A stretch of DNA of 64,000 nucleotides, taken from the NCBI GenBank assembly GCA_030684695.1, contig JAUXXX010000127.1, forward strand, positions 8,250-72,249, given 5' to 3'. Source of the DNA: a bacterium (GTDB lineage Bacteria; Bacillota_I; Bacilli_A; Izemoplasmatales; Hujiaoplasmataceae). A model generated the notes under the pieces. That model saw nothing but the letters and a program-made list of their open reading frames with translations. It was not told the DNA's origin and did no database searches. Both the position numbers and the translations under genes were made by a program. Below are positions 3,402 through 58,628 of the stretch, piece after piece; within the stretch, counting starts at the first letter, position 1, and each line of letters starts with the position of its first letter.

Positions 3402-4259
3402 TTACTTTTTGCTATCGAATAAGACAGTTACCACTCCGCAAAGGATTCCTCCAATAGGGAACGCAACCCAAGCAGGGTGCCAACTCCCTTGTAAAAAGCC
3501 AAATAACAAGAAAATGACAGTCGCAAGCATCATGATAATCGCATTAAGTTTTTCAACAAGCTGGTTTTGTTGTTTGGGTTTAGGTTCCATCGCCATCTTT
3601 TCACTAAGCATTCCATAATACACCATGAGAAACACCGCTATTCCAATCATCAGCATCATAATCGATAACGGATAAAACGGGTTTGACATCACGTATTGGA
3701 CTAAGGTAATAAAAACAATAATGGCAAGAAAAATCAAAGCAACGGCAATGGTCATCCCAAGTCCCATTTTCTTGCTAAACTCTCTTCTTTGCTTGGAATT
3801 ATAGTAGTCTGCATCTATGGGGATGCTTTTTTTAAATTCTTCTTCTTGGGTACCATAATAGATAAAGATAGCAACAGCAATCATGACAAATACAAGTAAG
3901 GTCCCGATTGGAAGAACGTATGCATTCTCTCCTAAAAGTCCAAAAAACAAAAACATGAGACTGACACCGATTAAAATCAAGAATACTCCAAGCGCAGTAA
4001 CCTTGGCATATTTGTTGTAGAAATGCTCGTACTCTTTTGCTTTATCGATTGAATCTGTATCAATCGTTGAATGAATCAATTCATCGATGGAGCAACGGAA
4101 CAATTCACACATTACCAACAAACGATCCATTTCTGGATAACTTTGACCACTTTCCCACTTATATATGGTTTGTCTTGAAACTTCCAACTTTTCTGCTAAT
4201 ACCTCTTGGCTCCATCCATACTGCTTTCGTAGCTTAACAACATTTTCACTAAATTTCAT
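3402..4259 (-). CDS. XRE-family HTH transcriptional regulator fused to a multi-TM membrane domain
   Basis: HTH_3 signature LRKQYGWSQEVLAEKLEVSRQTIYKWESGQSYPEMDRL, then 5-6 hydrophobic helices. Start moved to ATG 4259 (GAGGAG RBS) rather than the track start at 4313. Confidence 0.8.
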   Translation of the reverse strand: MKFSENVVKLRKQYGWSQEVLAEKLEVSRQTIYKWESGQSYPEMDRLLVMCELFRCSIDELIHSTIDTDSIDKAKEYEHFYNKYAKVTALGVFLILIGVSLMFLFFGLLGENAYVLPIGTLLVFVMIAVAIFIYYGTQEEEFKKSIPIDADYYNSKQRREFSKKMGLGMTIAVALIFLAIIVFITLVQYVMSNPFYPLSIMMLMIGIAVFLMVYYGMLSEKMAMEPKPKQQNQLVEKLNAIIMMLATVIFLLFGFLQGSWHPAWVAFPIGGILCGVVTVLFDSKK

Positions 4260-4443
4260 ATGATCATCTCCTCTGCCAAAATTGTAGCAAAAACTCAACT
4301 TTCTTAGTACCAACTACAACGTACATCTCTCGACATTCATGTACATTTTACTTTACATTCCTTGTAAATCATAGTGTAAATGTGCATTTTTGATGACATT
4401 TGGGACAAAAAACTTTCAATAATGTAATGAACGGTGATAACTA

Positions 4444-51795: not shown

Positions 51796-52098
51796 TCAGG
51801 ATAAACGGTATTCTTCAGGTAAATTTTCCATTTGGTCGAGTAATAACGTTTCTAACTCCTCAAAGATTTCCCGTTTTTGCATCGGGAAACAATCGTCGCA
51901 AAAATTGTCTTTGGGACAGTTTGCACAATACACACTTGTCATGTCCTTGTACTCATTAATGATTGCAAGAGTAGCCTTGATGGTTTGAACTTCGTCCTGC
52001 CGTCGTAAAAAGTAATAAGCTTCGAGGACTTCTTCAATGACCTTATCTCGCAGTTCGTTGATACCACGCATTGCTTTGATTCGATGGCTTGTTTTCAT
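51796..52098 (-). CDS. hypothetical 100-aa protein with a CxxC-x5-CxxC motif
   Basis: GGAGG RBS. The sequence YCANCPKDNFCDDCF is flanked by helical, acidic segments. Has its own terminator. Confidence 0.5.
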   Translation of the reverse strand: MKTSHRIKAMRGINELRDKVIEEVLEAYYFLRRQDEVQTIKATLAIINEYKDMTSVYCANCPKDNFCDDCFPMQKREIFEELETLLLDQMENLPEEYRLS

Positions 52099-52182
52099 AC
52101 TACCTCCATAATCACCATTCTCTTATGTGACCATTTCCAATTCCATTATATCGAAATATTAGCGTTGATAATAGATACCTAC

Positions 52183-52225
52183 AAAAAAAAAATAAAAAAG
52201 TTCGATATTTGGAGATATCAAACTT
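52183..52225 (-). terminator. terminator after tRNA-Trp
   Basis: Minus strand: AAGUUUGAUAU-cuccaa-AUAUCGAACUU followed by a long U-run. Confidence 0.7.
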
Positions 52226-52236
52226 TATTTTGTAAG

Positions 52237-52312
52237 TGGCAGGGGTGACAGGATTCGAACCCGTACAAACAGTTTTGGAGACTGTCGTGCTACCGTTGAC
52301 ACCACACCCCTA
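52237..52312 (-). tRNA. tRNA-Trp (anticodon CCA)
   Basis: Reverse complement: AGGGGTGTGGTGTCAACGGTAGCACGACAGTCTCCAAAACTGTTTGTACGGGTTCGAATCCTGTCACCCCTGCCA. Anticodon loop CTCCAAA. Confidence 0.92.
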
Positions 52313-52354
52313 AAAGGCATATATCTATTAAACAAGATTTCATAGAAATAGTCA

Positions 52355-52388
52355 AGAAAAAACCGCTTGAAACGGCTAATTTCAAGCG
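52355..52388 (-). terminator. terminator at the end of the HMA gene
   Basis: Minus strand: CGCUUGAAA-loop-UUUCAAGCG followed by GUUUUUUC. Confidence 0.65.
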
Positions 52389-52591
52389 AGTTTTTCTATG
52401 GATAGAAGTTTATAACCTTCTACTGCTAATGCGGATGAAATGACATCACTGGAGACAAACCCATCAAATAATACGTAGCATCCTTCCAAGGATACTTCTA
52501 CATTGGTAACTCCATAGATGTTTTTAAAAATATGATTAATATCGCGGGCACACCCTTCGCAGCACATACCATCAATGATTGCTTTTTTCAT
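52382..52591 (-). CDS. copZ: heavy-metal-associated (HMA) domain metallochaperone, CopZ-like
   Basis: 69 aa with an N-terminal GMCCEGC metal-binding loop and a ferredoxin-like length. No P-type ATPase gene adjacent. Confidence 0.75.
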   Translation of the reverse strand: MKKAIIDGMCCEGCARDINHIFKNIYGVTNVEVSLEGCYVLFDGFVSSDVISSALAVEGYKLLSIEKLA

Positions 52592-52662
52592 TTGTTGTCC
52601 TCCCTAAACAGCCTCATTATAGACTATCATTTTTGAAAAGTAAACAATCTAACAACTTTTCT

Positions 52663-53493
52663 CTAAAATGTAAGATTTTGCGATATTTTTAATCCAAATT
52701 GATTGGCAAAATCAATCGCCATTTCACTGGAAAAATCTGCTATTTCCTGTGGCTGATGAGCATCAGATCCGATAACGATACACACATCTTTGAAATCTTT
52801 TACCACATTCCAAAAATCATATCTTGGATACAAAAAATCCAAACATCCCTCTTTATAGACCGATTGTTTTCTGATTCCTCCTGCATTTATCTCTAAAGCC
52901 ACATTGTTTTTAATTGCTGAGGCAATAATTCGCTTGGTTACCTGCAATGCCACCTCATCAAACTCATATTTCCCCTTATCAGACAAATAACTAGCAAGAA
53001 ACAAATCAGGATGGACAAGCACTTTAAAAAATCCAGTGGCGAGAGCAGCTTCGATAGTGGAAGCATAGTCGAGTGCTCTGGTTTTATCCATTGGTTCGTA
53101 TGTATTATACAAGCCATTTGGAGTGTGAAAATAATGAACCCCTAGCAACAAATAATCGACATCTTGAAGTAATAACTCGTAATACTCATCGTGTCCTTTG
53201 ATGTATTCAATTTCAAGCCCTTTTCGGATTTTTATCAATGAAGAATAGTCTCTTATCGCTTGATTGACATCTGGCAAATAGACTTCTTTAAACATTTGGT
53301 AATCCATTTGTCGTTCCAACCAATTGTTCACATACTCCTGTGCAGTCATGAAACTCCTTGGTATGGGACCATGATCCGACATACCAATCTCTTGTAATCC
53401 TTTTTGAATAGCTACTTTTATATAATCCGCACTCATTCCAGTTGCGTGTCCACACAGTGCCGTATGGGTATGATAATTCGATATAAACTGCAT
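52663..53493 (-). CDS. PHP-family histidinol-phosphatase-like protein (HisJ family)
   Basis: NYHTHTALCGHA, MSDHGP, and GSDAH motifs. Start at ATG 53493 (GAGGTG RBS). Confidence 0.8.
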   Translation of the reverse strand: MQFISNYHTHTALCGHATGMSADYIKVAIQKGLQEIGMSDHGPIPRSFMTAQEYVNNWLERQMDYQMFKEVYLPDVNQAIRDYSSLIKIRKGLEIEYIKGHDEYYELLLQDVDYLLLGVHYFHTPNGLYNTYEPMDKTRALDYASTIEAALATGFFKVLVHPDLFLASYLSDKGKYEFDEVALQVTKRIIASAIKNNVALEINAGGIRKQSVYKEGCLDFLYPRYDFWNVVKDFKDVCIVIGSDAHQPQEIADFSSEMAIDFANQFGLKISQNLTF

Positions 53494-53529
53494 ATTTTTC
53501 ACCTCATGAACATTGTATCATATCCAACT

Positions 53530-53567
53530 CAAAAAAAAGAAAAGTGATGCACAAGGCAGCACTTTTC
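53530..53567 (-). terminator. terminator closing the repeat-peptide/regulator cassette
   Basis: Minus strand: GAAAAGUG-13 nt-CACUUUUC followed by U8. Confidence 0.7.
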
Positions 53568-53616
53568 CCAGGGAAGGGATTGGTCTATGAGGACCCGTTA
53601 GGGAAAATGAGTCAGT

Positions 53617-54912
53617 TTACGCTAAAAATATATCATCTGTGAGCGGAGATTTCGATGTTTTACTAGCCTTCTTGTTGTTCATCTGGGTAAACAGTTGAAT
53701 CGCCAACTCTTGAATGGTTTGACCACGATACTTATATCCTTGAAACTTTGATTCTGCCTCAATGAATCGTTTTTCTATGACATCATGGGGTTGTTTTGTG
53801 AATGCTGCTTCAAAGAATAACACCAATTTAAAATATTCATCGTTGTATTTCTCGTCTTCATGCAATCCTTTTAATGTGTGAACAACTGCGTTCGCAACAT
53901 CAAATTGATTGCTTTGGTAAGCACAATACACCATCATGATGGATTCATAATCATGTCGTTTGATGATTTGATCAATAATCCGTGTGTAATACTTCAATGC
54001 TTCGGTATATTGTTGTTCCATCAAGCAACAGTCTGCGTAGTTAAGGTAAGTGACACGATCAAGCCTTGGAATATCATTGAAGTTTAAATAGATTAAGTTC
54101 TTTTTCAACATCCGTTTTGCTTCGTCCACATTTCCAAGCTTTTTATAAAATGTGGCGATGTTCATCCGGCAAAAGACAGCTTTGGTATAGTTGAGTTGTT
54201 CTTCGAGCTTCGGCAATGCTTTGTTTGCATAAATAAGCGCATTGATGAAGTCACTGATTAGCGAGTAAGCAAATGATACGTGATAATTGGCTGTTGGCTC
54301 TAGTTCTGGATAGTTTGCAGCCAAATAAACCGTCAAGCGAGCATAGTGGATCACTTTTTCTTGATCCTTCATGATGCCTGCATAGGCGGCCATATATTCA
54401 TAATACAAGAATCGATGTTCATTCGATAATTTATCCACAAAGTGTTTTAAGAACTGAATTGCTTCACCGATTTTTGTGTGATTGACTTGATTGGTATAGT
54501 TCACTTCTGTAATGTGGTAGATTAATTGGGCCAGGTGTAAAGGAACTAACAAAATGGAATTTTGATAGTTGTCAAATTGTTGATGCATTTTTAGATAAAA
54601 AACTTCTGCTTCTTTAAATTTGGAGAAGCAAACACAGGTATAAAATTGGCTGAAGTTCTCATCCAAATTGGCAATCACCGATTTTGGTGTAGTGATTGGT
54701 ATGTGTAAGTGGTGAGCCATTTTATCCACAATTTCATCGTACCCTTCAAAGTTCTTCTGCTGGGCACGTCTAAAATTGGACTTTGGAATGGAAGCCTCTT
54801 CGTTAATATCTTTTTGGGTAATTGCATTGACCTTTTTGAGATACTCTACCATAACCAAGACATCTGCTCGGTTTTGGTAATAGAAATTACTAGAGAACTC
54901 ATAGATAGTCAT
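53617..54912 (-). CDS. HTH + TPR-like helical-repeat regulator (RNPP/NprR-like candidate peptide receptor)
   Basis: N-terminal HTH-like ITQKDINEEASIPKSNFRRAQQ. About 350 aa of helical repeats with TPR-like periodicity (IATFYKKLGNVDEAKRMLKKNL; CCLMEQQYTEALKYYTRII). No signal peptide or TM. The family call is an inference from architecture only. Confidence 0.55.
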   Translation of the reverse strand: MTIYEFSSNFYYQNRADVLVMVEYLKKVNAITQKDINEEASIPKSNFRRAQQKNFEGYDEIVDKMAHHLHIPITTPKSVIANLDENFSQFYTCVCFSKFKEAEVFYLKMHQQFDNYQNSILLVPLHLAQLIYHITEVNYTNQVNHTKIGEAIQFLKHFVDKLSNEHRFLYYEYMAAYAGIMKDQEKVIHYARLTVYLAANYPELEPTANYHVSFAYSLISDFINALIYANKALPKLEEQLNYTKAVFCRMNIATFYKKLGNVDEAKRMLKKNLIYLNFNDIPRLDRVTYLNYADCCLMEQQYTEALKYYTRIIDQIIKRHDYESIMMVYCAYQSNQFDVANAVVHTLKGLHEDEKYNDEYFKLVLFFEAAFTKQPHDVIEKRFIEAESKFQGYKYRGQTIQELAIQLFTQMNNKKASKTSKSPLTDDIFLA

Positions 54913-54999
54913 ATTGTATCAACCTTCTTTTATACGTCAGCGGAAAAATCGAAATCCTTTCACCGCTGGCAAAATAAAGAAGGAGTTGTTCCTAATTAT

Positions 55000-55416
55000 T
55001 TAGCAAGAAAATACTGGTTTTGGATATACGATTTCCGGTTCTGGATCGTCAGCTAAAAAACGTGGTGCTGGATAAACGATTTCTGGTTCTGGGTCATCAG
55101 CCAAGAAACGACGGTCTGGATATACGATTTCTGGTTCTGGGTCATCAGCTAAGAAACGACGGTCTGGATATACGATTTCTGGTTCTGGGTCATCAGCCAA
55201 GAAACGACGGTCTGGGTAAACGATTTCTGGTTCTGGATCGTCAGCTAAGAAACGACGGTCTGGATAAACGATTTCTGGTTCTGGATCATCAGCGAGTTGG
55301 ACGGGGTAATAAAACTCATTAGTAGAAATATCAGCTGTTCTTAACACGTTAAACGACACAAACATTGTAACTGCGAACACCATAACAAATAACGACTTCC
55401 ATGCAAACTTTTTCAT
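55000..55416 (-). CDS. secreted tandem-repeat propeptide: Sec signal + 6 x ADDPEPEIVYP
   Basis: AAGGAG RBS 7 nt before ATG 55416. MKKFAWKSLFVMVFAVTMFVSFNVLRTADIS..., then QL-[ADDPEPEIVYPDRRFL]x4-ADDPEPEIVYPAPRFL-ADDPEPEIVYPKPVFSC*. The repeats differ only by synonymous changes. Confidence 0.8.
   Translation of the reverse strand: MKKFAWKSLFVMVFAVTMFVSFNVLRTADISTNEFYYPVQLADDPEPEIVYPDRRFLADDPEPEIVYPDRRFLADDPEPEIVYPDRRFLADDPEPEIVYPDRRFLADDPEPEIVYPAPRFLADDPEPEIVYPKPVFSC
55030..55293 (-). repeat. 48-bp in-frame tandem repeat, 5.5 copies
   Basis: Units start at 55030, 55078, 55126, 55174, 55222 and 55270, each beginning gatttc[tc]ggttctgg on the plus strand. Confidence 0.95.
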
Positions 55417-55560
55417 AAACAATCTCCTTTAGGGCGAATATTTTTGTTTGAACATTGTGTCTCAAACAGGAATAACATGATGTGTTTTGCTTTCTATCAT
55501 CATCTTATCATAGCCCCAAATTATTGTAAATATTTGCATTTTAGGATATTTGTCTTTCAT

Positions 55561-55569
55561 ATTATAACA
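55561..55569 (-). promoter_or_regulatory. extended -10 (TGTTATAAT) candidate promoter of the repeat-peptide gene
   Basis: The minus strand reads TGTTATAAT. It lies about 145 nt upstream of the ATG, downstream of the preceding terminator. Confidence 0.4.
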
Positions 55570-55594
55570 TATTTCAAACTATAATCTATATAAT

Positions 55595-55610
55595 ATTCTA
55601 AAATTAGAAT
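55595..55610. promoter_or_regulatory. inverted repeat ATTCTAA-aa-TTAGAAT, candidate operator/activator site
   Basis: Perfect 7-bp arms, centred about 39 bp upstream of the centre of the candidate -10. Confidence 0.35.
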
Positions 55611-55714
55611 CTTTTTCACTTAAGATTTTTGTAAGGACTTCTTTTTAATGGCCCAATCGCCATAAAAATTAATTTAATAAATTTTCAAAAAGATTCAGAA
55701 AACGGAATATTGAT

Positions 55715-55740
55715 CAAAAAAAGCAACCGAATTCGGTCGC
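55715..55740 (-). terminator. terminator after the acyltransferase gene (upstream boundary of the cassette)
   Basis: Minus strand: GCGACCGAA/UUCGGUUGC followed by U7. Confidence 0.75.
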
Positions 55741-55752
55741 TCTTATGATTTT

Positions 55753-57006
55753 TTATTCTTTTAATGCGAATCTTTCAATCATTTTTTGTTTATACAGTTC
55801 CTCTACAGCAAAATGAAGTTTGGTGACAACATTTTTTTGATGTAAGGGATATAAGTAATACGTATCGTCTAGTGTTGATAAATCAAGACAATCTGTAGTT
55901 CCTAAATAGTCATATTCAATGTGTAGAGAGTACATTGATAATGGGTCTTTACGAAGTTCAAAGGATTCACTGCCAAAGCTTCCGTGCAAATGGAATCCTT
56001 GAAGATCATGACGCAATGTAGCGTTTCCCAAACGAATATATCCTTTGGAGTTGGGTAGAGAATCTACCGCCACTTCATCTTCAAAGAAATATGTTCCGTC
56101 TAAAATTTGTTTTTTGACGTGTTCGCGCTCAAATTCATACCAATCTGGGATATGAGCAAATTCTGTATCCCCAGATTCCGCATGTAGTCTTCCAAGCTCA
56201 TCCATTTCGTAGGTTTTATGACAATGATTGCACCAAAGTTTGGACCCTTTTGAATCCATCTGATGTTCGGTCAAACACGAAGGGCATAAGTATAATACTT
56301 TATGGAGACCTTTCGCACGGTCTTCGTAAGAAATCTTCAGTTTATTTTCAAATTGATACTTGTATTCGTCATAAACAAAAGCATCATTGATCCGTTTGTT
56401 GATTTGTGGAACACTTAATTCAAAAATATCCTCTTTTGTGACGATTTGCGTCATATCTGCAGAAATCCGTACTTTCCGCTTTTTTAGATTCCATACGGGT
56501 TGGCTTAAGTAGTTCCCATGCATGTTGAGTACAACAATCGGGTGCTTCATTAATTTACAAAGTTTACCTAATGAATCTGGCAAAATGGCATTCGTACCAG
56601 CCAATGAATATCTTGCTTCTGGATAAATGGCAATGATGGTTTTGTTGACCTTTAGGGAATGTTCAATTTGACGTATCAAACTAATGTCGTTTGTAAACTT
56701 GCGTTTACACAAACATCCAACATCCCGTAATAGTTTTTCTCTGCCGATGAAACCATCTATAGCCACTATATAGTTAGCTTTATGTGGAAAAATTGCAGCG
56801 GTAGTTACTGAGAAATCAATAAAGGCATGGTGAGTACATAATAATACATATGGTGGTTTTAATCCCTTCATATGATGCTTGCGTACTTTAAGGTGATGTC
56901 CCCATACCGTTGGAAAAGCCAAAAGCCAAGCCAAGATGGTCAAATACCAGGCTTGTTTTTTCGGTTTTTTAAGCATATCAAAACGCGTTTCATGTTGGTC
57001 CTTCAT
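55753..57006 (-). CDS. PlsC-family acyltransferase with zinc ribbon (paralog of 1106-2242)
   Basis: HX4D (CTHHAFIDF), IAIYPEARYS, CPSC...CNHC. AAGGAG RBS. 10-nt gap after the GGDEF gene. Confidence 0.75.
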   Translation of the reverse strand: MKDQHETRFDMLKKPKKQAWYLTILAWLLAFPTVWGHHLKVRKHHMKGLKPPYVLLCTHHAFIDFSVTTAAIFPHKANYIVAIDGFIGREKLLRDVGCLCKRKFTNDISLIRQIEHSLKVNKTIIAIYPEARYSLAGTNAILPDSLGKLCKLMKHPIVVLNMHGNYLSQPVWNLKKRKVRISADMTQIVTKEDIFELSVPQINKRINDAFVYDEYKYQFENKLKISYEDRAKGLHKVLYLCPSCLTEHQMDSKGSKLWCNHCHKTYEMDELGRLHAESGDTEFAHIPDWYEFEREHVKKQILDGTYFFEDEVAVDSLPNSKGYIRLGNATLRHDLQGFHLHGSFGSESFELRKDPLSMYSLHIEYDYLGTTDCLDLSTLDDTYYLYPLHQKNVVTKLHFAVEELYKQKMIERFALKE

Positions 57007-57016
57007 TATTTACTCC

Positions 57017-58573
57017 TTAGTTTTGAATTGATGAAGCAGTCATCACACAATTCTTTCCATTTTTTTTAGCCTGATACATTCCCATATCCGCTTGGTAAAT
57101 ATGGTTCATAATATCTTGGTTTCCATCCACCATTCCATGACTTACTCCAATGGATACCTGAATTTGAATTTTTATTTCCCCATATACAAACCATCTATTT
57201 TCTACAGCTATTCGGGCAATATCAGACAAACGCAGTGCTTCCTCCAAACTTACTTGAGGCAGCAATCCAACAAACTCTTCCCCACCATAACGAGAAAAGA
57301 TAGCATTATCTGGCAGGTTTCGGTAAAGAATATTACTTAGATCCTCTAATAACAAATCCCCCACTAAATGTCCATGGGTATCATTCACAAGTTTAAAGTC
57401 GTCAATATCTATCATCATTACTGCAAATGACTCTTGTGAACGAAATGCAGATTGAAAATACCGATCCACTCTTTCAAAGAACGCTCTTCTGTTCAATAGC
57501 TTTGTTAATGCGTCATGAGAAGCATCAAAATCCAAGCGTTCAATCTTTTCTAGGTAGGCTGTCATATCGTTAAATTTTAGCAAATATCCATTTATCCGTC
57601 CACGCTTTGTTTTTAAATCGACGGTTTCTACGATATAACGTTTCTCTTTGATGAAAAAGGTACTTGTTTGTTTCAAAAAAATCGCGGAATATACTTCGTC
57701 ATCTCGAATGTAGCGTTTAAGTGGCATACGATATAAAAGGGGTCTTGATTGAAGGGATTGGATGGCTTGATTCCATGAAACGATTTCGAATCGATCGTCA
57801 AGAAGCAACATCGGATCTGTCGAATGCTCAAATGTAGCTCGGTGCGCAAGTGGAGCCAAATCAAACACTTCGTAATTGACAGTGGCATATAAAATAATAT
57901 AACCAAGAATCACATACAAATACAAAGAAAGATCGATTCCCAAGGTATGGGTTGTCAGGAATATTGGAATTGTTGCGACAGCTGTTATGGCAGAGCAAAA
58001 CATCATTGCAAACGATTGCTTCTTTTGAATTCCAGAAGATTTGATAAAAATCTTAGCATACATTCCTGTTACAATTAATACAAGTATCACATTATATACT
58101 GCGTTCACAAAATAAAGGAAGCCCTTTTCAATGATTAATATTGCTAATCCAAAATTATCAATCGATAAGGAGTTGTCGATATCAAAGGATTTGTAATACC
58201 AATCCATCGAGGTAAAGTAGCTTAGTTGAGCAGCGAAAAACACAAGCAGCGGGACTACTAAGAATGCATAATGCTTTTTGAGCGAGAAATGATAGCTTGG
58301 TGTTTTAAAACGAATGGCAATGATCAACCAAATTGTTGATAGAAACGGGATGGCTAAATATTGAACTCGATTTGACAGCACTTTAGTAAGTTCCGTTTCA
58401 CTCATTAACTCAAGTGCATAACCAAATGCATAAACAGCTTCTAAGACAAACAAAAGCCCAATTTGAGACAGACCATTTCGACGAGGAATACGTACAAAAA
58501 TAACAATAGCGATGGCCAATGCCACCACAGCCAATGCAATCGTACCTCCAATAAGCAAATAATCTAGCCTCAT
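57017..58573 (-). CDS. membrane-bound diguanylate cyclase (7-TM sensor + PAS-like + GGDEF)
   Basis: Seven N-terminal TM helices. GGDEF domain with LTKLLNRRAF, DIDDFKLVND, and active-site RYGGEEF. No RxxD I-site five residues upstream. Confidence 0.85.
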   Translation of the reverse strand: MRLDYLLIGGTIALAVVALAIAIVIFVRIPRRNGLSQIGLLFVLEAVYAFGYALELMSETELTKVLSNRVQYLAIPFLSTIWLIIAIRFKTPSYHFSLKKHYAFLVVPLLVFFAAQLSYFTSMDWYYKSFDIDNSLSIDNFGLAILIIEKGFLYFVNAVYNVILVLIVTGMYAKIFIKSSGIQKKQSFAMMFCSAITAVATIPIFLTTHTLGIDLSLYLYVILGYIILYATVNYEVFDLAPLAHRATFEHSTDPMLLLDDRFEIVSWNQAIQSLQSRPLLYRMPLKRYIRDDEVYSAIFLKQTSTFFIKEKRYIVETVDLKTKRGRINGYLLKFNDMTAYLEKIERLDFDASHDALTKLLNRRAFFERVDRYFQSAFRSQESFAVMMIDIDDFKLVNDTHGHLVGDLLLEDLSNILYRNLPDNAIFSRYGGEEFVGLLPQVSLEEALRLSDIARIAVENRWFVYGEIKIQIQVSIGVSHGMVDGNQDIMNHIYQADMGMYQAKKNGKNCVMTASSIQN

Positions 58574-58628
58574 GATTTCACCCACTTTTTTTTATTATAT
58601 CACGAGTCATCTTGAAGTATCATAGAGT

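Follow-up and report, generated by a model that had tools for sequence, protein, structure and literature searches.

A candidate RRNPP-type peptide signalling cassette with a polyprotein-like pheromone precursor in an Izemoplasmatales-like bacterium

Introduction

Is a gene that encodes the same short peptide six times in tandem maintained for the sake of each peptide copy, for that of the protein as a whole, or merely as a repeat in the DNA? This question is raised by a 64,000-nucleotide stretch of a metagenome-assembled genome (MAG) placed in the Izemoplasmatales (GenBank assembly GCA_030684695.1, contig JAUXXX010000127.1, positions 8,250 to 72,249; hereafter the window, with all coordinates counted from its first letter). 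On its minus strand the window carries a gene for a predicted secreted precursor with six copies of the core peptide ADDPEPEIVYP and, 87 bp away on the same strand, a gene for a protein that combines a predicted N-terminal helix-turn-helix (HTH) domain with a superhelix of tetratricopeptide repeats (TPR), referred to below as the receptor. We consider it likely that these two genes constitute a self-contained, chromosomal, RRNPP-type peptide quorum-sensing cassette with a polyprotein-like pheromone precursor in an Izemoplasmatales-like host.

Selection on the repeated core peptide

A single tandem array occupies positions 55021–55293 (period 48, 5.7 copies, 91% matches and zero indels according to Tandem Repeats Finder) within a minus-strand open reading frame (ORF) that runs from 55422 or 55416 to 55000. 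The likely start is the ATG at 55416, which has the Shine-Dalgarno sequence AAGGAG 7 nt upstream and yields a product of 138 aa, while the TTG at 55422 is an unlikely start. The precursor has the layout MKKFAWKSLFVMVFAVTMFVSFNVLRTADISTNEFYYPVQL-(ADDPEPEIVYP-DRRFL)x4-ADDPEPEIVYP-APRFL-ADDPEPEIVYP-KPVFSC, in which the core, with five acidic residues out of 11, occurs six times without any variation, as a first-pass annotation made from the sequence had stated. Neither Pfam nor NCBIfam models match the precursor, and the exact 138-aa sequence has no entry in the protein collection. In many orthologues a signal-peptide cleavage site of canonical type (VNA↓A) directly abuts the first core, so that the N-terminal end of the signal may lie there.

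The first-pass annotation had further claimed that the repeat units of this array differ at synonymous third positions, with amino acid changes confined to a linker, and a computational recheck of the unit alignment and of the synonymous and non-synonymous counts gave exactly the claimed outcome. All four 48-nt units on the reverse complement of 55078–55269 translate to VYPDRRFLADDPEPEI and vary at exactly five sites (GTT/GTA, TAT/TAC, TTA/TTG, GAC/GAT and GAT/GAC), each of them a synonymous third position. The fifth unit (55030–55077) adds TTC>TTT and CCA>CCG, both synonymous, together with the linker replacement DR>AP. Within the core itself (S = 7.3 and N = 25.7 sites) five of five variable sites are synonymous. 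Random single-base changes in the unit would be synonymous in 22–32% of cases (kappa 1–8), and the probability of drawing five out of five by chance is P ~5e-4 to 3e-3, or ~3e-5 to 3e-4 for seven out of seven.

On the opposite strand, a plus-strand ORF at 55020–55322 is indeed present, and the same substitutions alter its residues (HQP/HQL, LDI/LDK/LGK), an observation that had been put forward in favour of the minus-strand frame. Comparison between loci bears this assignment out: the sense frame alone stays open in all 16 arrays examined, and the antisense frame is interrupted by stops in most orthologous arrays. The residue-changing substitutions together with these stops rule out the 100-aa antisense ORF as coding, and it is a mirror artefact of the periodicity.

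Constraint and turnover in orthologous arrays

The array was compared across 12 genome loci, 18 metagenome loci and six loci of close relatives. Wherever sequence upstream of the receptor exists, a small same-strand gene adjoins it that encodes a signal peptide followed by tandem copies of D-[DE]-[PD]-E-P-[ED]-[FI]-[VAM]-Y, locus L009 being the sole exception. Units were compared in pairs within each of 18 arrays by Nei-Gojobori counts, which gave a proportion of non-synonymous differences (pN) of 0.000 for the eight-codon inner core D[PD]EP[ED][FI]xY in 17 of the 18 arrays and of 0.011 in L006; the corresponding synonymous proportion (pS) ranged from 0.17 to 0.90. Linkers showed pN values of up to 0.27 and pS values of ~0–0.74. 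Summed over arrays, the full 11-codon core holds 217 synonymous versus 33 non-synonymous variants, nearly all of the latter at the first two and last positions or in one degenerate unit of L006. Neither frequent core replacements nor frame-disrupting indels were found in the sense frame of any array. These results support the earlier proposal that purifying selection acts on the peptide and that each copy is individually constrained: selection removes core variants, thereby fixing each copy at the protein level, and the notion that every unit yields a functional product is consistent with all of the data.

The proposal that the array is old enough to have drifted holds for the codons, but this is half of the story because the arrays also turn over. 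Linkers are uniform inside an array and otherwise species-specific (DRRFL, KEV/KEL, DQL, GKVIQL, AGGV, IQLGV and others). The nearest strain (L031; receptor 98% identical, flanks at ~94% nucleotide identity) has seven cores versus six in the window, so that copy number differs between close strains; every difference between the two arrays is synonymous, and none of the units matches in codon pattern between the strains. Loci L024 and L028 have common flanks with nine versus four copies, and copy number across orthologues ranges from one to nine (nine in L006, L023 and L024), all of these numbers being approximate as they derive from short-read assemblies. Contigs start or break inside the array in L031, L034, L035, L036, L004, L005, L020 and L022, and runs of N occur in L001 and L010. 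The homogeneity of linkers within arrays and their difference between species, combined with the differing composition and number of units between close strains, indicate that arrays turn over by unit duplication, loss or conversion.

Some arrays also vary in ways that help to delimit the signal. The residues before DDD and after Y differ among units in L010 and L012, and one surviving unit of L006 reads SDAEPEFAYP. Judged by this within-array variation, the minimal signal is probably D-x-E-P-E-[FI]-x-Y with one or two preceding acidic residues. In locus L007 the propeptide is 55 aa long and ends in its single core, an arrangement canonical for RRNPP systems.

A receptor with a Rap/NprR-like fold

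The receptor is deposited at NCBI as MDP2426491.1 under the name 'MAG: tetratricopeptide repeat protein'. TPR_12 is its only Pfam match (33.9 bits against a cutoff of 30.1), and no Pfam HTH model matches the protein itself. A search of 5.8 billion clustered proteins recovered 32 homologues at E ≤ 1e-3, all of 410–436 aa, and the few with named sources come from Izemoplasmatales. A full hidden Markov model scan of 1.84 billion representatives returned four proteins at E ≤ 1e-30 and 60 at E ≤ 1e-3.

The AlphaFold2 model of the receptor, built from 32 sequences, is all-helical with a predicted local distance difference test score (pLDDT) of 88 and a predicted template modelling score (pTM) of 0.79. 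Its top Foldseek matches in the PDB are Rap proteins (phi3T, RapI, RapF, RapJ and pLS20) and NprR, which align over ~360 columns at E 1e-6 to 1e-5 with target-normalised TM scores of 0.5–0.68 and rank above generic TPR proteins such as LGN.

Evidence for the DNA-binding domain comes from more distant relatives. Among 39 full-length remote profile relatives, Pfam detects HTH_3 in 26, TPR_12 in 28 and RapH_N in two, and NCBIfam assigns generic HTH and TPR models only. The N-terminal 75 residues of the family, which contain the invariant pattern T32-Q-K..I-N....I-P-K-S-N-F-R-R-A-Q, align with the N-termini of the HTH_3-bearing relatives at an hhalign probability of 96.9% (E 1.4e-10). When this domain was modelled separately (pLDDT 83), the top 14 Foldseek neighbours were all XRE-type HTH proteins (HipB, CylR2, VanU), at E-values short of significance.

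The protein thus has the size (250–500 aa) and architecture of a TPR-type cytoplasmic RRNPP receptor, together with the N-terminal HTH found in all RRNPP subfamilies but Rap. None of the solved RRNPP receptors matches it significantly in sequence, and sequence homology does not place it in the NprR subfamily. The receptor family would work like NprR without belonging to it at the sequence level.

Conservation and distribution of the cassette

The pairing of a propeptide gene with a receptor gene extends beyond the close orthologues. The genes of two distant relatives of the receptor, P0033 and P0034, both follow a gene for a putative single-copy secreted propeptide of 46–53 aa, which indicates that the conserved unit of the wider family consists of a gene for a small secreted peptide and, after it, one for an HTH-TPR receptor. 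This combination is the RRNPP signature as defined previously (PMC10075063, PMC9765709).

Locus L009 (3480–4003, DILB01000002.1, 'Bacillales bacterium UBA5603') has no precursor gene and carries both promoter boxes described below and the extended -10 element directly before the receptor; a small membrane-protein gene upstream contains in-frame stops. L009 may represent a listener without a signal of its own, or the assembly may have collapsed there. In another locus (L040:1-1619) the C-terminal end of a P0035-like paralogue lies immediately before P0036, a distant member of the family, showing that receptors of the wider family can occur as tandem paralogues.

A tblastn search with the receptor against phage and plasmid collections gave no match, and a mobile-element origin was dropped for this reason. 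Judged by the sequences recovered, the receptor family is chromosomal and confined to Izemoplasmatales-like MAGs. NCBI places the Izemoplasmatales in the Mollicutes. Complete genomes with the cassette include OW818673.1 (L002).

Promoter region and spacer hairpin

Alignment of the 260 nt before 15 precursor genes revealed conserved islands in otherwise diverged sequence, among them two palindromic boxes (boxes 1 and 2, Table 1) whose half-sites carry TTC/GAA triplets with a centre-to-centre distance of 11 bp. A spacing of 63–64 bp, or about six helical turns, puts the boxes on the same face of the helix, and their positions are fixed across the 15 loci. Allowing up to two mismatches, the 64-kb window contains five matches to the box versus 1.29 expected, a number reached in none of 100 shuffles, and four of these five fall in 55421–55711, within 300 bp upstream of the precursor. 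Across the 15 loci, 29 matches at the same threshold lie in 4.7 kb of upstream sequence versus two in the remaining 106.6 kb. The match at 2708–2729 was rejected as a regulon member, being inside an ORF and within chance expectation. The layout of the boxes fits a dimer-of-dimers HTH regulator that would autoregulate the cassette, and the presence of an extended -10 element without a -35 element directly downstream of box 1 suggests activation.

A second level of control may reside in the spacer between the two genes, where a stem-loop sequesters the receptor Shine-Dalgarno sequence by base pairing (Table 1). Comparable spacer hairpins were found in 10 of 14 orthologues (z ≤ -2 rounded, one of them at -1.96) despite unrelated sequence, and may exert translational or RNA-processing control on the receptor, setting the ratio of receptor to signal. 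At the other end of the cassette, a hairpin with a T-run closes the upstream gene, which makes the cassette look like a separate transcription unit; a consensus terminator scan of 53400–55800 reported no terminator and did not flag this hairpin.

Proposed mechanism and alternative explanations

We posit that the precursor gene (55416..55000) encodes a Sec-exported polyprotein in which six identical acidic cores are held between disposable linkers. After export the signal peptide would be removed, and extracellular proteases would cut and trim the linkers and the C-terminal tail, so that one translation event could release about six pheromone molecules, the mature signal probably being an 8- to 11-mer around D-D-P-E-P-E-I-V-Y. 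With its six identical cores, each of them conserved, the precursor belongs with the multi-copy propeptides. Re-imported peptide would bind the concave TPR surface of the cytoplasmic receptor (54912..53617), whose HTH domain would recognise boxes 1 and 2 (palindrome AATATTC-N8-GAATATT, spacing 63 bp), which lie on one face of the DNA in the promoter region of the precursor. Peptide binding would alter the interaction of receptor and boxes and result in autoregulation of the cassette, most likely as positive feedback at the extended -10 promoter that lacks a -35 element, and possibly in control of a further regulon. A more speculative extension, which we regard as possible though not probable, is that the family constitutes a new RRNPP-like subfamily and the first candidate for peptide quorum sensing in Izemoplasmatales, with an obligate polyprotein precursor, with copy number (one to nine) serving as a fast-evolving gain control on signal per transcript, and with orphan listeners such as L009 exploiting a public signal.

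Several observations weigh against the quorum-sensing interpretation. No oligopeptide permease is present among the 30 large ORFs of the window, the linkers have no common protease site, and the core is strongly acidic, which is atypical of characterised RRNPP pheromones. The receptor has no NCBIfam match, and its profile found nothing better than E = 0.2 among all PDB chains and no NprR or Rap at E ≤ 10. The similarity of its TPR-superhelix fold is partly generic, given that LGN/Pins and designed TPR proteins also score in Foldseek, and the Foldseek matches of the isolated HTH domain are not significant (E 2–6). The upstream regions in which the box was counted are also those that supplied its motif, and the independent evidence for it is its absence elsewhere only. 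The core variants EPEIVY, EPEFVY, EPDFVY, EPEFAY and EPEFMY track receptor clades, which fits cognate pairs of signal and receptor, but plain vertical descent would give the same pattern. Finally, all sequences come from MAGs or metagenomes, and the system is known from sequence and prediction alone.

Among the alternatives, the one that survives best, although we consider it unlikely, is that the array encodes a secreted repetitive acidic protein or peptide with a non-signalling role (cation binding, surface coating or antagonism), the HTH-TPR protein being its regulator or an unrelated neighbour. The acidity of the core would suit such a role, as would the gene for a heavy-metal-associated (HMA) protein that is conserved two genes downstream in orthologous loci, and a conserved motif with variable spacers is also possible in repeat proteins. 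However, a structural repeat would not be expected to work as one 11-residue copy, as in L007, nor to tolerate variation from one to nine copies. Furthermore, the distant receptors are paired in the same position with unrelated short, single-copy secreted propeptides, which argues that the conserved pairing is one of small secreted peptide and receptor rather than of acidic repeat and regulator, and the best structural matches of the receptor are the peptide-binding Rap and NprR proteins.

We give very little credence to the possibility that the gene encodes a multi-core precursor of a ribosomally synthesized and post-translationally modified peptide (RiPP) that is processed by a dedicated modifying enzyme, with the TPR protein as pathway regulator. 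Invariant cores with variable spacers are typical of some RiPP classes such as cyanobactins and the fungal dikaritins, Tyr and Pro are conserved in the core, and a Cys is sometimes the next residue after it. Against this, the precursor has no RiPP-type enzyme as a direct neighbour, be it in the window or in the orthologous loci, and the sole radical-SAM gene of the window is 30 kb away; bacterial RiPP leaders do not usually contain a Sec signal peptide, and the single-copy relatives resemble ordinary RRNPP propeptides.

It is similarly improbable that the peptides are sensed elsewhere, for example by a neighbouring 7TM-GGDEF membrane sensor, and that the TPR-HTH protein only controls expression of the signal. 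A HisKA_7TM-GGDEF gene does lie two genes upstream (57017–58585) and is syntenic in L033, but vertical inheritance within one order explains this synteny equally well. The fold of the receptor and the family-wide pairing of propeptide and receptor point instead to direct cytoplasmic sensing, and L009, which has kept receptor and boxes and lost the precursor, resembles an orphan listener.

Lastly, a non-coding DNA tandem repeat whose ORFs are by-products of periodicity, a reading to which the period of 48 (divisible by three, so that several frames can stay open) and the existence of the antisense ORF might lend some appeal, is already refuted by variable sites that are all synonymous in one frame only, by pN = 0 versus pS of up to 0.9 in orthologues, by a sense frame that alone is open in all arrays, and by the Shine-Dalgarno sequence, ATG and signal peptide of the ORF.

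Features of the locus and neighbouring genes

Table 1. Annotated and predicted features of the cassette and its upstream region (positions in the window)
Feature	Position	Strand	Remarks
Receptor/regulator gene, 431 aa	53617..54912	-	Residues 1–75 (54688–54912) divergent XRE-type HTH; residues ~77–416 TPR superhelix, Rap/NprR-like fold
Spacer stem-loop	54920..54988	-	CCUUCUU pairs with receptor Shine-Dalgarno AAGAAGG; minimum free energy -21.7 kcal/mol, z = -2.76; 87-nt spacer
Propeptide gene, 138 aa + stop	55000..55416	-	Signal peptide, six cores, five linkers, C-terminal tail; sole frame open in all orthologous arrays
Core 6, ADDPEPEIVYP	55021..55053	-	Followed by tail KPVFSC (55003–55020) and stop codon
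Core 5, ADDPEPEIVYP	55069..55101	-	
Core 4, ADDPEPEIVYP	55117..55149	-	
Core 3, ADDPEPEIVYP	55165..55197	-	
Core 2, ADDPEPEIVYP	55213..55245	-	
Core 1, ADDPEPEIVYP	55261..55293	-	
Predicted Sec-type signal peptide, ~residues 1–28	55333..55416	-	MKK, hydrophobic stretch, LRTA; sequence inspection by eye; window copy without clear cleavage site
Possible fourth box, AATATTCGCCCTAAAGGAGATT	55421..55442	.	Two mismatches; overlaps precursor Shine-Dalgarno AAGGAG; only in window, L014 and L032; weakly supported
Promoter-like P2	55502..55530	-	TTTACA, 17 nt, TG-n-TAAGAT; AATATTTACA and T.TG.TA motif conserved in alignment
Box 2, AATATCCTAAAATGCAAATATT	55529..55550	.	AATATTC-N8-(G/A)AATATT; 63 bp downstream of box 1; overlaps P2 -35
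Extended -10 P1, TGTTATAAT (TGnTATAAT)	55561..55569	-	Conserved as T.TG.TATAAT; no conserved -35
Box 1, AAGATTCTAATTTTAGAATATT, candidate operator	55592..55613	.	Consensus AAnATTC-N8-GAATATT; alignment, motif scans, base counts; ends 25 nt upstream of extended -10
Extra box copy, AATATTCCGTTTTCTGAATCTT	55690..55711	.	One mismatch; ~98 bp upstream of box 1; confined to the clade of the window (position -295 in window and L014)
Probable intrinsic terminator	55716..55740	-	Hairpin gcgaccg-aatt-cggttgc and T-run; read by eye just past stop of upstream 417-aa gene

Conserved neighbours of the cassette across loci comprise an acyltransferase-like protein, a PHP phosphatase, the HMA protein, a U32 peptidase, ABC transporters and a GGDEF protein. 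The 417-aa upstream neighbour (55753–57006, minus strand) is syntenic across the family; it falls into no curated family and shows only a weak Acyltransferase match along with zinc-ribbon-like CxxC motifs. In some orthologues a membrane protein of ~95 aa is inserted between this gene and the precursor. An Rfam search of 52000–58000 (E ≤ 1) returned a single tRNA gene (52240–52311, minus strand; RF00005, 59 bits), which lies downstream of the PHP phosphatase gene, and no known riboswitch or leader. Elsewhere in the window, a minus-strand gene at 3402–4313 encodes a 303-aa protein with an N-terminal HTH_3 domain (E 1e-15), which is in the size range of Rgg/PlcR-type regulators.

Comparison with known systems

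Among characterised systems, NprR-NprX of the Bacillus cereus group shares with the window cassette a receptor of ~420–430 aa in which an N-terminal XRE-type HTH is followed by a long TPR superhelix, and a secreted Sec-type propeptide encoded beside the receptor; the NprR structures 4gpk and 5dbk are also among the top Foldseek matches. The two differ in gene order, as the propeptide gene lies downstream of the receptor in NprR-NprX and upstream of it in the window. Further differences are the strongly acidic core, a high copy number that is the rule across the window family, the host (Izemoplasmatales, not Bacillales) and the lack of any profile match to PDB chains or NCBIfam match for the window receptor. 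Atypically long NprX propeptides with repeated pheromones have been reported (PMC9765709, Table 3).

The Rap-Phr systems with tandem pheromones in the phages phi3T and phi105 provide the best structural matches to the receptor (8rst, 8rsv, 8rte and others). Experiments on two phage Rap-Phr systems demonstrated that specific extracellular proteases liberate the duplicated pheromones and that these are active (Felipe-Ruiz et al. 2024, PMC11343458), and up to eight identical pheromone copies per propeptide are cited in the same work. Unlike the window receptor, Rap proteins have no HTH and act on protein targets, and phr is located downstream of rap. Rap-Phr cassettes are moreover often found on mobile elements, whereas the phage and plasmid collections contain no relative of the window family.

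PlcR-PapR and PrgX resemble the cassette in having an HTH-TPR receptor and palindromic boxes in the promoter of their own cassette, to which the boxes in the window would be functionally equivalent. PlcR is subject to positive autoregulation via boxes in its own signalling cassette, and the two same-face operators of the window recall the tetramer or looping models for PrgX and NprR. No sequence similarity to these systems was detected, and PlcR, at ~285 aa and with the box TATGNAN4TNCATA, differs from the window receptor and its box in both respects. A more distant parallel is offered by the yeast alpha-factor precursor (MF-alpha-1) and animal neuropeptide polyproteins, in which a signal peptide is followed by tandem identical pheromones and spacers such that several signals arise per translation. 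These eukaryotic precursors are not homologous and differ in their dibasic Kex2 processing in the secretory pathway and in signalling through surface G-protein-coupled receptors, the analogy being purely functional.

Multi-copy pheromone propeptides are established in RRNPP systems, having been described in the AimR, NprR, PlcR and Rap subfamilies with up to six identical copies (PMC9765709, section 7 and discussion). What is new in the present family is that it has no sequence-level link to the named RRNPP subfamilies, is found in Izemoplasmatales-like MAGs only and usually has a high copy number. In full-text searches we found no paper linking Izemoplasma to an RRNPP-type system, and the RRNPP surveys consulted contain no mention of Mollicutes or Tenericutes. 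RRNPP_detector has a default propeptide range of 10–100 aa (PMC10075063), which the 138-aa precursor exceeds, and would exclude such cassettes; combined with a public annotation as 'TPR repeat protein' this means that they would be missed.

It has been called an unresolved question whether propeptides with duplicated pheromones need all of their copies to be functional ones or carry some that are not (PMC11343458). The ~18 independent arrays analysed here, in which copies are invariant at the protein level while codons and linkers drift, are among the cleanest comparative evidence bearing on it. With a defined peptide, a soluble receptor and a predicted 22-bp operator the system is also experimentally tractable and, if confirmed, would extend RRNPP-type communication to free-living relatives of the mycoplasmas.

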